A stretch of DNA of 64,000 nucleotides from Limnochordales bacterium (lineage in GTDB: Bacteria > Bacillota > Limnochordia > Limnochordales > DUMU01), in the NCBI GenBank assembly GCA_014896315.1, contig JADBKP010000001.1, forward strand, positions 393,557 to 457,556, given 5' to 3'. Made by a program: the position numbers and the translations under genes. Numbering within the stretch: position 1 is the first letter of the stretch; each line of letters begins with the position of its first letter. This document shows positions 50,203-55,060 of this stretch, piece by piece. Under the pieces are notes generated by a model. That model was not told where the DNA came from, searched no databases, and was given only the letters and a program-made list of their open reading frames with translations.

Positions 50203-50901
50203 CTACTCCGACGCACCTGGCTTGGGTCCTTCCTCCCCGCCTTCTCCCGAACTGCCCGGCCGCTCCCTTGCTCCCTGCCCCGTCGAGCGTCCGACCGGCG
50301 CGATGATGACCCGCCTGTACGGCTCCTTCCCTTCGCTATACGTTTCGACATCCGGGTCGTTTGCCAGGGCCAAATGAATAACCCGGCGCTCCAACGCGTT
50401 CATGGGCTCGAGCGCCACCGGTCGGCCCGTCAGCCGGGCCTGGCGCGCCATTCTTTGCGCCAGTGCCTCCAGTGTCCGTCGCTGCCGCTCCCGGTAACCC
50501 TCGACATCCACTACCACACGGAACCGGCCCTCGGCCCCCTTCGCCACTACCTGGCGTACTAGCAACTGGAGTGCATCCAGAGTCTGGCCGCGGCGACCGA
50601 TGAGCAGTCCCGCCCCGCTACCACGAATACTGTACCGGATGACGTCTTCTTCTCCCACCTTGCCGTCAACGAACGCGTCTACCCCGATACCCCTGATCAC
50701 CTCTTCGAGAAAGCGGCGTCCCCTCCGCATCAGCCTTTCCTTCGGCGGAACTTCTGTAACCCTGACCTTTACGTAGCGTCCGCCAAGACCGAATAAACCC
50801 CGCGTTCCCTCCCCGATCACCTCCACCTTAACTTCGTCCGACTCGACCCCCAGTTCCTCCAGAGCGGCAATCACGGCCTCGTCAACGGTCCGCCCCGTCA
50901 T
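50203..50901 (-). CDS. jag: Jag/KhpB RNA-binding protein (Jag_N, KH, R3H)
   Basis: MTGRTVDEAVIAALEELGV..EVKVEVI (Jag_N) and a C-terminal R3H region LEPMNALERRVIHLAL. The ATG at 50901 lies 1 nt after the yidC stop, with GGAGG upstream. Confidence 0.85.
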   Translation of the reverse strand: MTGRTVDEAVIAALEELGVESDEVKVEVIGEGTRGLFGLGGRYVKVRVTEVPPKERLMRRGRRFLEEVIRGIGVDAFVDGKVGEEDVIRYSIRGSGAGLLIGRRGQTLDALQLLVRQVVAKGAEGRFRVVVDVEGYRERQRRTLEALAQRMARQARLTGRPVALEPMNALERRVIHLALANDPDVETYSEGKEPYRRVIIAPVGRSTGQGARERPGSSGEGGEEGPKPGASE

Positions 50902-50902
50902 C

Positions 50903-51619
50903 TCAACGGACCTGACCTCCGTCTCCTCCCTCGCTGGGCGCTGCTCGTCCACGCTTATGCCGCCCTCCTTCCTCCCTCGTTGGTGCACTCTTCGCATCCT
51001 CGGGTTTGGGAATTCCCAATGTTCGGTTGATCAGCCACTGCTGTCCGATGCTAAACAGGGTGCTGGCCACCCAGTAGAGCGCCACCCCTGCAGGAAGCGT
51101 AGCGGTAAGCCCGGCAAAAATGATGGGCATCATGGCCACCATACCTTTGGTGGTCGGATCCCCACTACTGCCCGTCCCGCTAAGCAGGCTTTGCGCGTAC
51201 ATTGTCACGCCGCTCAGAATCGGCAGGATGAAGTAGGGATCAGCAGCCCGCAGGTCGTCGATCCATAGAAAACCCTGGCGGAACTCATAGACCCGCAACA
51301 TGTTGTAGAGTGCCCACAAGAAGGGCATCTGTACCAGAATCAGCAGGCAGCCCGAGAACGGATTTACCTTCTCCTCGCGATAAAGCTGCAGCAGGCGTCG
51401 CTGCAGTTCCTCCGGCTTGTCGCGATACTTCTCCTGCAGCGCAGCTACCTTGGGCTGAATTGCCCGCATCTTGGCCGTCGTACGAAACTGGGGGGTCATG
51501 AGCGGCCAAAGCAGCAGGCGGATTACCACCGTAAGCAGGATCACGCCCAACCCCGCGCTGCCGGTCAGGTCCGCAAAGAGTTCAAGAAGCCATCTCATCC
51601 CTGCTTCCAGGTACTGCAA
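50903..51619 (-). CDS. yidC: Membrane protein insertase YidC/SpoIIIJ (short Gram-positive type)
   Basis: GLGVILLTVVIRLLLWPL, KMRAIQPKVAALQEKYRDKPEELQ, NPFSGCLLILVQMPF. Confidence 0.9.
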   Translation of the reverse strand: MQYLEAGMRWLLELFADLTGSAGLGVILLTVVIRLLLWPLMTPQFRTTAKMRAIQPKVAALQEKYRDKPEELQRRLLQLYREEKVNPFSGCLLILVQMPFLWALYNMLRVYEFRQGFLWIDDLRAADPYFILPILSGVTMYAQSLLSGTGSSGDPTTKGMVAMMPIIFAGLTATLPAGVALYWVASTLFSIGQQWLINRTLGIPKPEDAKSAPTREEGGRHKRGRAAPSEGGDGGQVR

Positions 51620-51714: not shown

Positions 51715-51996
51715 TCACGGAACCGGATCGTATCCGCCGGCATTCCACGGGTGGCACCTGCTGATCCGCCGTACGGCAAGGAGTGCTCCTCGCCACGGCC
51801 CATATTTCTGCACGGCCTGCAGCGCATATTCGGAACAAGTAGGATAAAAGCGGCAGCTCCGGGGCTTCCAGGGAGAGATAAACTGTCGGTAGGCCTGGAT
51901 GGACAAAAGCAAAAGGCGCGCGAGCAGTACGCTTCCGACGCGCCAGCAGGTACGCACCCAAATGCTATTTCTTGCCCATCCAACGGTGCTCCGCAT
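51715..51996 (-). CDS. yidD: Membrane protein insertion efficiency factor YidD
   Basis: IQAYRQFISPWKPRSCRFYPTCSEYALQAVQKYGPWRGALLAVRRISRCHPW. Confidence 0.85.
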   Translation of the reverse strand: MRSTVGWARNSIWVRTCWRVGSVLLARLLLLSIQAYRQFISPWKPRSCRFYPTCSEYALQAVQKYGPWRGALLAVRRISRCHPWNAGGYDPVP

Positions 51997-52014: not shown

Positions 52015-52593
52015 TCAGACGTGAAGTTCCGGTAGCCGCCGCCTCCAGTCATCCCAAGCCTTCGCTACGGCCTGCTCCAGGTCTTCCCTCAGCTCCTGAT
52101 AGCTGGCGCCTCCCGCCTGCGGCCGGGCAGCCACCACCAGTTTGACCGTAGCTGCGCACGTCCTACCATTTACTCCCTGCTCGACCATAGATCGGAGAAG
52201 CTCCGTGCCCCTGCAGATCTCCACTACGGCTGCTCGCAACCGCCGGCGAACCCGGTTGCGCACCACCGCCTTCCCCACTTTCCTGGATACCGAAAACCCA
52301 ACCCGCACTTCGCACCTTTCGCCCGGTTCGACCAGCAAGCGTACCCCGACCAGCCGGGACTCCCCCCGGGCCCCCAGAGCATACACCCGGGCAAACGCTG
52401 ACCTGCCACGTAAGGCTGCCGGCGACGGGGCCCGGACCCTACCGGCCCCGCTTACACCGTCAGCCGTGCCCGGCCCTTCGCCCGGCGACGCTTCAGGGTC
52501 CGGCGCCCGCCCGGAGTGGCCATCCGGGCCAGAAACCCATGCACCCGGGCCCGTCTGCGCCGCTTCGGCTGCCACGTCCTCTTCATCACCCAT
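52015..52593 (-). CDS. rnpA: Ribonuclease P protein component, with an N-terminal extension that overlaps all of rpmH
   Basis: Core [36 protein letters not shown] (RNR motif). In this frame the only start codons upstream of the conserved N-terminal motif are the GTG at 52575, the ATG at 52593 and the ATG at 52647. I chose 52593 because GGAG/GGGAG SD motifs lie upstream. Confidence 0.7.
52452..52586 (-). CDS. rpmH: 50S ribosomal protein L34
   Basis: Below the track's size cut-off and found by hand: [44 protein letters not shown] (44 aa), a canonical L34 sequence at the canonical position upstream of the rnpA core. Confidence 0.9.
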
Positions 52594-52719
52594 CGCTCCC
52601 ACTCCACGGAAAAGCGCTAGCGAAGCGCTCCTCACGCAAATCTCCATGCTCTATGCGTAGGAACGCCTAGATTATAGTAACCAGCCGCGACCAGTGTCAA
52701 TTAAGCTTGTCGCCTCCTG

Positions 52720-52959
52720 CTATCCACAGTTCTCCACAGGATCCACAACCTGTTGACAGTACAGGGCTGTGCGCGCCCTGAAGGCGCCCCCGCCCAACCG
52801 GATTCCACAGATCTCCCCAAATATCGGGGAAAGGCTGTGGATAGATACATCGCTACCGTTGCTCCTGCTAAATGCGGGTACCGGCGCCGCGCCCAGGCCG
52901 CGCACCCCCTTTCCACAAGCCTTCTTGGCCTGTGGATAACTTGTTGATTCTGTGTATAA
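52720..52959. other. oriC: oriC, upstream DnaA-box cluster (rpmH-dnaA intergenic region)
   Basis: At least 8 DnaA-box-like 9-mers (consensus TTATCCACA): cTATCCACA 52720, TTcTCCACA 52730, ggATCCACA 52739, gATTCCACA 52801, TGTGGATAg 52836, TTTCCACA 52910, TGTGGATAA 52931 (perfect), TGTGtATAA 52951. Confidence 0.8.
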
Positions 52960-53034: not shown

Positions 53035-54606
53035 ATGCAAGACGCTGAGACAATCTGGACGCAAACCCTGGCGCTCCTTGCGGAGCACCTGGACCCTGAC
53101 ACCTTCTCCGCCTGGCTGAGCGGAGCACGGCCACTGGGAGTCCATGGCAACACGCTCCTGGTTGAGATACCCAATGAGTTCGCGCGCGACTGGCTAAACG
53201 CGCAGTATCACGATTTCCTTCATGCTTGTCTGGCCCAGATTGTTGGAGAGGGCTGGAATATCCGGTTCCTCCTGCCAAACGAGAGCCCTCCGCGGCGGGC
53301 CCAGGTTGCTCGTCCTGCAAGTGCACTCTTTCCGCCAGTTACCCCGGAGACACAGCCAATCCCGGGTGTCCTGACGCGTCAGGACCTCTTGCGTGACGCC
53401 CGATCCGGACGTACGCCAGTACGGTCGCAGCCACTGCCTGCCTCGCCAGCTATGTCGGAGGTGGCGGCCGCGCGCCTGCCCTCAAATCTTTCGGCGCGTC
53501 CTTCGGCCGGCGGTACCGGCACCGTGATCACGCCTCCTTCAATATCCTTGCCTCCCATCCAGCACCGCGACCGCGATGACCTCGTTCTCCACCTGAACCC
53601 GAAGTACACCTTTGACACCTTCGTGGTCGGTGCCAACAACCGCTTTGCGCATGCCGCCTGTCTGGCGGTGGCCGAATCCCCGGCCGAGAGCTACAACCCT
53701 CTCTTCCTGTACGGTGGGGTCGGGCTGGGCAAGACCCACCTCATGCAGGCTATCTGCCACTATGTACTGGAGCGGTCACCCAACGCCCGGGTCATGTACG
53801 TAACCTCCGAAAAGTTCACCAACGAATTGATCAACGGCATCCAGAAGAAGGCGATGGACCAGTTCCGCGCCCGCTACCGGACGCTGGACATCCTGCTGAT
53901 CGACGACATCCAGTTCGTCGCCGGGAAGGATAGCACGCAAGAGGAGTTCTTCCACACCTTCAACGCGCTCTACGAGGCAAACAAACAGATAGTTATCTCC
54001 AGCGACCGCCCGCCCAAGGAGATCCCCACCCTCGAAGAGCGGCTCCGATCCCGCTTTGAATGGGGCTTGATGGCCGATATCGCTCCGCCCGACTTCGAGA
54101 CACGCATTGCCATTCTGCAACGGAAGGCCGCTTTGGATAACCTCGAGGTTTCGCCCGAGGTCATCACGTACCTGGCCGAACAGATCCAAAGCAACATTCG
54201 CGAGCTCGAGGGTGCGCTCAACCGGGTAGTGGCCTACGCTTCCCTGGCTGGCCGCGAGCTCACCGTCGACCTTGCCCGCGAAGCACTCAAGCCCATGCTC
54301 TCGAGCAATCCCATGCGGGTGACCGTCGCCGCCATCCAGAAGGTCGTGGCCGAATACTTTGGCGTCCCTCTGGATGAGCTGCGCGGCAAACGGCGCAGCC
54401 GCTCCGTGGCCTTCCCGCGGCAGATTGCCATGTACCTCGCCCGGGAGCTGACCGACGCCTCCCTGCCCCAGATTGGTGAGGAGTTCGGCCGCGATCACAC
54501 TACCGTCCTGCATGCCTGCGAGAAGGTGAAAGCTGAGCTGGCGCAGGACCGTTCTCTCCAAGTGCACCTGCAAACCCTGAAGGAACGGCTGCTCCGCAAT
54601 TCCTAG
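53035..54606 (+). CDS. dnaA: Chromosomal replication initiator protein DnaA
   Basis: LNPKYTFDTFVVGANNRFAHAA, LFLYGGVGLGKTHLMQAI, IDDIQF, and the domain IV motif FGRDHTTVLHA. It has a long, P/S-rich domain II. Confidence 0.97.
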   Translation: MQDAETIWTQTLALLAEHLDPDTFSAWLSGARPLGVHGNTLLVEIPNEFARDWLNAQYHDFLHACLAQIVGEGWNIRFLLPNESPPRRAQVARPASALFPPVTPETQPIPGVLTRQDLLRDARSGRTPVRSQPLPASPAMSEVAAARLPSNLSARPSAGGTGTVITPPSISLPPIQHRDRDDLVLHLNPKYTFDTFVVGANNRFAHAACLAVAESPAESYNPLFLYGGVGLGKTHLMQAICHYVLERSPNARVMYVTSEKFTNELINGIQKKAMDQFRARYRTLDILLIDDIQFVAGKDSTQEEFFHTFNALYEANKQIVISSDRPPKEIPTLEERLRSRFEWGLMADIAPPDFETRIAILQRKAALDNLEVSPEVITYLAEQIQSNIRELEGALNRVVAYASLAGRELTVDLAREALKPMLSSNPMRVTVAAIQKVVAEYFGVPLDELRGKRRSRSVAFPRQIAMYLARELTDASLPQIGEEFGRDHTTVLHACEKVKAELAQDRSLQVHLQTLKERLLRNS

Positions 54607-54637: not shown

Positions 54638-55060
54638 GGATCCACATTGTCCTTGTGGATAAGTAGTCGATCCTAAATCATACGCAGAAGAGGGCCCGGC
54701 TATCACCAGATTATTCACCGTTTCGGCACGGGCCCTTCCCCAGGCCTTTCCCGGCGTTTTTGCCTTTTCCTCGGTCCTGGGTGCTGCCTGTCCGAGACTT
54801 TTCCACACAACCCAACGCCCGACGAAGGCGACAGCTACCTCCATACGAGTAAGTCTTCCACCTCCACCCCCGCCACCACCCGACGCCCCGCAATCCACCC
54901 ACCCGCCGACCGGACACCCACCCACCACCCATACGCATACAAAAGTCACCCGCCCGCCGACTCAAACTAACCCCTTCCACCGCAAGCTCGGCAGGATTTC
55001 ACCCCTCCAGCCGGAAGCCTATAAACGGTATACTGGTTAACAAAGCAACAGCTGTCGCAA
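54638..55060. other. oriC: oriC, downstream part (dnaA-dnaN intergenic region): DnaA boxes, a C-rich tract and an AT-richer candidate unwinding segment
   Basis: ggATCCACA at 54638, TGTGGATAA at 54654 (perfect), TTTTCCACA at 54799. The locally AT-richer stretch ctataaacggtatactggttaacaaagcaaca lies at about 55019..55050. The bipartite layout resembles Bacillus oriC. Confidence 0.6.
54858..54930. repeat. Strand-asymmetric C-rich tract (CCACC/CACCC repeats)
   Basis: The plus strand reads tccacctccacccccgccaccacccgacgccccgcaatccacccacccgccgaccggacacccacccaccaccc. The complement carries many GGG/GGGG runs. Confidence 0.7.

Follow-up and report, generated by a model that had tools for sequence, protein, structure and literature searches.

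Candidate nesting of rpmH within an extended rnpA reading frame in the Bacillota order Limnochordales

The conventional rpmH-rnpA operon, which encodes ribosomal protein L34 and the RNase P protein RnpA, is found in the "majority of bacteria" (PMC9945441). In operons of this type, such as those of E. coli and B. subtilis, rnpA has its own start codon after rpmH. The locus considered here lies in a 64-kb window (the whole stretch of DNA analysed) from a metagenome-assembled genome (MAG) of Limnochordales, an order of Bacillota, and it lacks that start, which raises the question of where the translation of its RnpA begins. An earlier note on this DNA had placed rpmH out of frame inside the 5' part of rnpA and had regarded such an arrangement as known only from Thermus; the nesting and its coordinates are confirmed on the minus strand, while the idea that Thermus stands alone holds for the searchable literature and fails in a survey of sequences, in which other lineages also carry the overlap.

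Anatomy of the rpmH-rnpA locus

The rpmH gene occupies positions 52586..52452 on the minus strand, running from ATG (52586..52584) to TAA (52454..52452), and encodes 44 amino acids plus a stop. Its product matches all 44 positions of the L34 profile PF00468 (1-44/44, E 3.4e-21, 75.3 bits, cut-off 25) and also TIGR01030 (E 3.8e-19, 68.6 bits, cut-off 37.65). The earlier note had considered that a second rpmH elsewhere might leave this frame untranslated; exactly one L34 reading frame was found in the 64-kb window. The open reading frame containing rnpA (52647..52015, minus strand, 210 aa) runs in the -1 frame with respect to rpmH and remains open (52650 to 52015) over the full length of that gene, with an in-frame stop at 52653. 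A search of its translation with PF00825, as the earlier note had suggested, matched residues 77-197 (E 3.5e-18, 66.1 bits, cut-off 22.3), so that homology begins at residue 77, corresponding to nt 52419, 33 nt past the rpmH stop; TIGR00188 gave 46.3 bits (cut-off 38.35).

The RnpA core, delimited by PF00825 and by the predicted structure, extends over 52015..52419 (minus strand). In an AlphaFold2 model built from a 94-sequence alignment, with residues counted from ATG 52593, residues 1-58 of the resulting 192-aa protein have no secondary structure (pLDDT 51-67), and the fold begins at residue 59 with strand 59-60 and helix 64-73 (pLDDT >90). The top 15 Foldseek matches of this model are all RNase P proteins, with B. 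subtilis RnpA entries 4jg4 and 1a6f reaching TM scores of 0.81 and 0.79, respectively (normalised to target), and phmmer aligned residue 11 of 1a6f with residue 62 of the window protein (E 2.5e-07). Relatives show little or no variation at L61 and F67, the conserved basic "RNR" motif is present, and G107, A109, V110, R112, N113, and R117 are invariant in the 94 homologues. By profile, predicted fold, and motif, the rnpA product is a bacterial RNase P protein.

Apart from the missing rnpA start, the locus resembles the conventional operons of E. coli and B. subtilis, with rpmH, rnpA, yidD, yidC, and jag lying next to dnaA and with a single promoter from which rnpA would be expressed on the rpmH transcript. 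On the minus strand, rnpA is followed by yidD (51715..51996, PF01809, E 8e-32), yidC (50903..51619), and jag (50203..50997), and the order rnpA-yidD-yidC-jag also occurs in relatives. The longest open reading frames of yidC and jag overlap by 95 nt (50903-50997, minus strand), and a similar overlap of 62 nt is called in the related contig L004; the jag start may have been set too far upstream, or the two genes may truly overlap. A predicted sigma-70-type promoter for the rpmH/rnpA transcript, composed of TTGACA, an 18-nt spacer, and TATAAT, lies at 52671..52700 on the minus strand and agrees with consensus at 12/12 positions (shuffled sequence yields a mean of 0.2 sites). All clade relatives carry the TTGACA...TATAAT pair ahead of rpmH, and the predicted transcript start near 52664 would leave a 5' UTR of ~70 nt.

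Two putative Shine-Dalgarno (SD) motifs are arranged in tandem as GGAG-T-GGGAG at 52605..52596 on the minus strand. The first, GGAG (SD1, 52602..52605), lies 8 nt upstream of an ATG at 52593 and has the same sequence, GTGGAGTGGGAGCG, in the relatives L001 and L009, with CTGGGGTGGGAGCG as its counterpart in L004; the second, GGGAG (SD2, 52596..52600), lies 9 nt upstream of the rpmH ATG at 52586. A small G+C-rich hairpin (AGCGC, a 7-nt loop, GCGCT), read from the sequence at 52613..52629 (minus strand), is situated just upstream of these motifs. Short G+C-rich hairpins are found at the equivalent place of the 5' UTR in L001, L004, L006, and L089, with differing sequences; comparison among clade members yielded a weak consensus fold with no compensatory changes, and an Rfam search around the locus matched no known RNA element.

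Between the rpmH promoter and dnaA (53035..54606), a DnaA-box cluster of five TTATCCACA-like sites (at most one mismatch) spans 52720-52959, and two further DnaA-box-like sites lie just downstream of dnaA (54654-54807). The whole window holds 15 such sites versus 5.9 expected, and the flanking clusters look like a bipartite oriC. The source of the window is itself a MAG; an assembly error is nevertheless disfavoured, because independent assemblies of relatives from separate sequencing runs show a like arrangement.

Candidate start codons in the window and its relatives

A codon-by-codon listing of the rnpA frame revealed no ATG, GTG, TTG, CTG, ATT, ATC, or ATA between GTG 52575 and GTG 52386, which bears out the earlier note's claim of a start-free interval and extends it to CTG and ATH codons. 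Similarly, the stretch from the rpmH stop to the codon of Leu61 (52411..52451, minus strand) contains no canonical start and no CTG, ATH, or ACG codon in the rnpA frame. Since the N-terminal motif of RnpA follows rpmH without an intervening start, translation of RnpA must begin at or upstream of 52575. Five in-frame candidates are available there, namely ATG 52647, GTG 52635, GTG 52602, ATG 52593, and GTG 52575; the earlier note had named 52575, 52593, and 52647, all of which are present, and had missed 52635 and 52602.

These candidates were compared at the DNA level with the corresponding loci of relatives, whose RnpA identity was measured against the window. They comprise the contigs encoding P0002 (L001-L003) and L009 (64-66% identity), those encoding P0003 (L004/L005, 42%), P0004 (L006-L008, 44%), and P0009 (L089/L090, about 42%), and Limnochorda pilosa (L098, AP014924, about 42-46%). 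The earlier note had called for a comparison of the rpmH-rnpA junction in related genomes, and both frames proved to be open there. An ATG in frame with rnpA and at exactly -7 relative to the rpmH start is present in 7/7 loci (the window, L001, L009, L004, L006, L089, and L. pilosa), where rpmH itself starts with ATG or GTG and where the 4 nt following the -7 ATG vary among lineages (GGTG, CGTG, GCGT, GAAG, and GAAC). What has been observed is the gene anatomy, the lack of a conventional start in the window, and the presence of the -7 ATG throughout these loci. In the window, this codon occupies 52591..52593 on the minus strand, 7 nt upstream of the rpmH ATG and in the -1 frame. It is favoured because it is conserved while the other candidate starts are not, and ATG 52593 is therefore considered the most likely start of rnpA, in which case rpmH would be completely nested and RnpA would have 192 aa. 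That the -1 frame stays open was rejected as evidence by itself, as it does so by chance in 48% of synonymous rpmH recodings generated with the codon usage of the window; it is the absence of a downstream start together with a conserved in-frame -7 ATG that exceeds chance.

Several features count against this assignment. The spacing between SD2 and ATG 52593 is just 2 nt, and SD1, a GGAG, is short. The tandem SD motifs proposed in the earlier note are both present, and their geometry is plausible, given that GGAG is 8 nt from ATG 52593 and GGGAG is 9 nt from the rpmH ATG; their function is putative, with SD1 presumably serving rnpA and SD2 presumably serving rpmH. In addition, L001 and L009 have one start-like codon after rpmH, a TTG, which is the Leu61 codon itself.

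The most serious alternative, though an unlikely one, is that RnpA starts at GTG 52575 (52573..52575, minus strand), 11 nt inside rpmH, which would give a protein of 186 aa and an out-of-frame overlap of 124 nt out of 135, so that rpmH would not be strictly nested. This is the codon selected by PGAP for the identical GenBank protein P0001 (186 aa, "MAG: Limnochordales bacterium"); an NTG occupies the position in the window (GTG), L001 (ATG), and L004 (TTG) as well as in several Thermus loci, and a GAGG formed by the rpmH codons AAG AGG lies 2 nt upstream. However, the NTG arises automatically from the Thr-Trp codons of L34, as GTG 52575 consists of the last base of the Thr codon and the TG of the Trp codon. 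In L006 and L089, where L34 has Tyr, the equivalent codons are ATA and GTA, neither of which is a start, and the main SD motifs of the window are at least 20 nt upstream of 52575. Moreover, published work places the rnpA start of Thermus at the upstream AUG of AUGGAUG (PMC9841429).

A conventional order with re-initiation after the rpmH stop, at a non-NTG codon among the 12 codons preceding the core (for example, AGG 52440), appears distinctly improbable. Very little RnpA is required (in E. coli, L34 exceeds it ~130-fold; PMC9945441), and a precedent of sorts may be offered by L028 and L077, two loci from OM1/Acidimicrobiia MAGs (locus position ~2440-2520) in which the rnpA frame is +1 relative to rpmH. 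These loci have no ATG, GTG, or TTG from the upstream stop to the conserved Leu, and they have an ATA 2 nt past the rpmH stop (TGAAATAGCG); their rnpA may use a non-canonical start or termination-reinitiation, and, as they seem to be without a canonical start, non-canonical initiation of rnpA may exist in nature. The window, however, has no CTG, ATT, ATC, ATA, or ACG between the rpmH stop and Leu61, and no candidate position for re-initiation is conserved among the window, L001, and L004, unlike the -7 ATG.

A start further upstream, at ATG 52647 or GTG 52635, is very improbable. Both codons belong to the rnpA frame, follow its last stop (52653), and would yield proteins of 210 aa (the longest open reading frame) or 206 aa. 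Neither is preceded by an SD motif, however, and ATG 52647 is just ~15 nt from the predicted transcript start; in the corresponding stretch, L001 has an in-frame TAG, and L004, L006, and L089 have no equivalent codons. Both were accordingly rejected as not conserved and lacking an SD, and GTG 52602 was likewise considered and rejected. That an L34-RnpA fusion arises through a -1 ribosomal frameshift in rpmH, or that a truncated RnpA starts at GTG 52386, is scarcely credible, for although rnpA is read in the -1 frame relative to rpmH and GTG 52386 is the next canonical start, no classical slippery heptamer was seen in rpmH on inspection by eye, and a start at 52386 (residue 70), which the earlier note had rightly said would delete the N-terminal motif, would remove strand 59-60 and cut away half of helix 64-73 together with L61 and F67, both encoded upstream of it.

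With ATG 52593 as the preferred start, the relatives fall into two groups. Neither the window nor L004 has a canonical rnpA start downstream of rpmH. In contrast, L006, L089, and L. pilosa retain a conventional GTG or ATG 5 nt after the rpmH stop (M-ERLRRR / M-ERMRRR), from which the annotated RnpA of L. pilosa (123 aa) begins. L. pilosa and the L006 and L089 loci belong to the same bacterial order as the window and share with it the -7 ATG and the open -1 frame leading into rnpA, but the retained start makes their overlap optional, and since they may not need the -7 ATG, its conservation there could have another cause. As read from these loci, the overlap is obligatory in the sub-lineage of the window and optional in its sister group. 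Such a distribution looks like a stepwise origin, in which an open frame and an upstream ATG would have come first and the internal start would have been lost later, and the Limnochordaceae may represent a living evolutionary intermediate that makes two RnpA isoforms.

Two observations concern the records themselves. The contig L009 (JBLNBY010000171.1) goes under the title "MAG: Bacteroidota bacterium", but its rpmH/rnpA locus is of Limnochordales type, with an RnpA 66% identical to that of the window and a promoter and SD region resembling those of L001, and its taxonomic label or binning is probably wrong. In the overlap-type contigs from Logan, ENA, and JGI (L001-L008 and L089-L097), the gene calls comprise a long rnpA and no L34, while the L34 gene is called in the GenBank record of L. 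pilosa. Annotations can therefore easily miss a nested rpmH, and L34 can seem to be missing from MAGs, because contig gene calls omit rpmH at overlap loci.

The N-terminal extension and the wider distribution of the overlap

Initiation at ATG 52593 would give RnpA a 58-residue N-terminal extension (52420..52593, minus strand), encoded mostly in the -1 frame of rpmH. The extension contains 10 D+E versus 3 K+R, and G, P, A, and S account for 35 of its 58 residues. A search of a 51-aa extension against 1.84 billion protein representatives returned only the protein itself and low-complexity noise. Following a suggestion of the earlier note, synonymous-site constraint was examined in rpmH, and no conservation in excess of that in dnaA or yidC was detected, in a comparison whose 44 codons afford little power. 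Codon identity at conserved residues in three pairs was 0.62, 0.53, and 0.49 for rpmH, as against 0.56, 0.45, and 0.45 for dnaA and 0.65, 0.41, and 0.47 for yidC. The extension seems to be carried along with the L34 codons, its own sequence apparently not under selection, in agreement with work on Thermus, in which the extension is reportedly under relaxed constraint and dispensable in vitro. Because the extension shows no detectable protein-level constraint and is predicted to be disordered, the overlap probably matters for coupled initiation rather than for protein function.

A wider survey classified 77 of the 80 best-listed genome loci, chosen by RnpA similarity, together with the window and 8 clade contigs. 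Among the loci listed, those with an apparently obligatory overlap are the window, L004/L005, six loci from Thermus species, L037, and L057. All six Thermus loci have an ATG at -4, rnpA in the -1 frame, and no start from the rpmH stop to the RnpA core. The L037 locus (Ca. Sysuimicrobium calidum) has two consecutive ATG codons (-25/-22) preceded by a GGGGAGG of their own, and its rpmH starts with TTG; the L057 locus (a Truepera radiovictrix MAG) offers solely a GTG at -73 and a CTG that overlaps the stop of rpmH. In 73 conventional loci, the nearest start mostly lies 6-7 codons upstream of the Leu61 equivalent. When the 192-aa protein was searched against metagenome contigs, one distant, conventionally arranged locus (L091) was recovered.

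An extension in the -1 frame of L34 is called in 77 of the 232 RnpA homologues retrieved, and a Met precedes the core in only 11 of these 77. Six more metagenomic contigs were picked from the extension-carrying proteins; four of them (L092, L094, L095, and L097) have no canonical rnpA start after rpmH, and two (L093 and L096) have a possible conventional start. The contig L094 (ENA ERZ27256608, 71% GC) contains GGAAGGATGTGGATGGATGAAG, with an ATG at -4 as in Thermus (ATGGATG) and another at -10. Together, these data suggest that the arrangement is commoner in GC-rich bacteria than the literature says, in a sample that is biased and in which most contigs carry no taxonomy. The broader proposition that overlap of rpmH by rnpA is recurrent and probably of independent origin in GC-rich bacteria, with the Limnochordaceae perhaps a two-isoform intermediate, is advanced at even confidence.

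Proposed coupled initiation and known systems

The explanation that best accounts for the locus as a whole, with a nested rpmH, RnpA made from ATG 52593, and coupled initiation of the two genes, is considered likely. The promoter at 52700..52671 would produce one mRNA carrying the start codons of two proteins, in different frames and 7 nt from each other. Ribosomes choosing ATG 52586 would make L34, while the presumably far rarer ribosomes choosing ATG 52593 would proceed in the -1 frame through rpmH into the RnpA core and yield an RNase P protein of 192 aa, in which residues 1-58, acidic and unstructured, would arise as a by-product of L34 coding. With the starts so near each other, joint occupancy would be impossible and initiation mutually exclusive, so that RnpA synthesis would amount to a fixed small share of L34 initiation, tying the supply of the RNase P protein to ribosomal protein synthesis. 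We infer the start in use, the roles of the SD motifs, the expression ratio, and the coupling from the arrangement of the locus.

The closest known counterpart is the rnpA-rpmH overlap of Thermus thermophilus and other Thermus species, credited to Feltens et al. (2003, PNAS 100:5724) in PMC9841429 and bioRxiv 10.1101/520783. A coupling of RNase P protein supply to ribosomal protein synthesis has been proposed for Thermus. A 2022 report gives rnpA/rpmH of Thermus as the only described ambiguous start site (PMC9841429); in another account, only two out-of-frame internal initiations are known, and the pair is one of them (bioRxiv 10.1101/520783). A literature search on Limnochordia and RNase P and on nested rnpA/rpmH found nothing beyond the Thermus reports. 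As in Thermus, the 5' part of rnpA in the window encloses all of rpmH and is read in the -1 frame relative to it; the presumed rnpA ATG precedes that of rpmH by a few nt, no start intervenes between the rpmH stop and the core, and the extension is acidic, Pro/Gly-rich, and poorly conserved. The two systems differ in start spacing (7 nt in the window, ATGGGTGATG, versus 4 nt in Thermus, ATGGATG), in their SDs (two tandem SD-like motifs versus the single GGAGG reported for Thermus), and in their hosts (Bacillota, order Limnochordales, versus Deinococcota). The Thermus overlap is reported to be experimentally proven, and that of the window is predicted from sequence.

A looser likeness exists to the ambiguous or adjacent starts of E. 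coli, AUGUG/GUGUG sites such as those of pqiA and tamA (PMC9841429), where two starts also lie a few nt apart in different frames, with one or two SDs and competition for ribosomes. The alternative frames in E. coli are short open reading frames, however, while both frames in the window encode essential, universally conserved proteins.

On the evidence of its sequence, the window locus is a Thermus-type overlap in a Bacillota order, of which the literature names Thermus as the sole described case. It indicates that such an overlap can also originate or be maintained beyond Deinococcota, and spacings of 7 versus 4 nt and one versus two SDs become comparable as determinants of how ribosomes would be partitioned between two essential genes, a question that becomes testable because the cultured L. 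pilosa has both the long and the short start.
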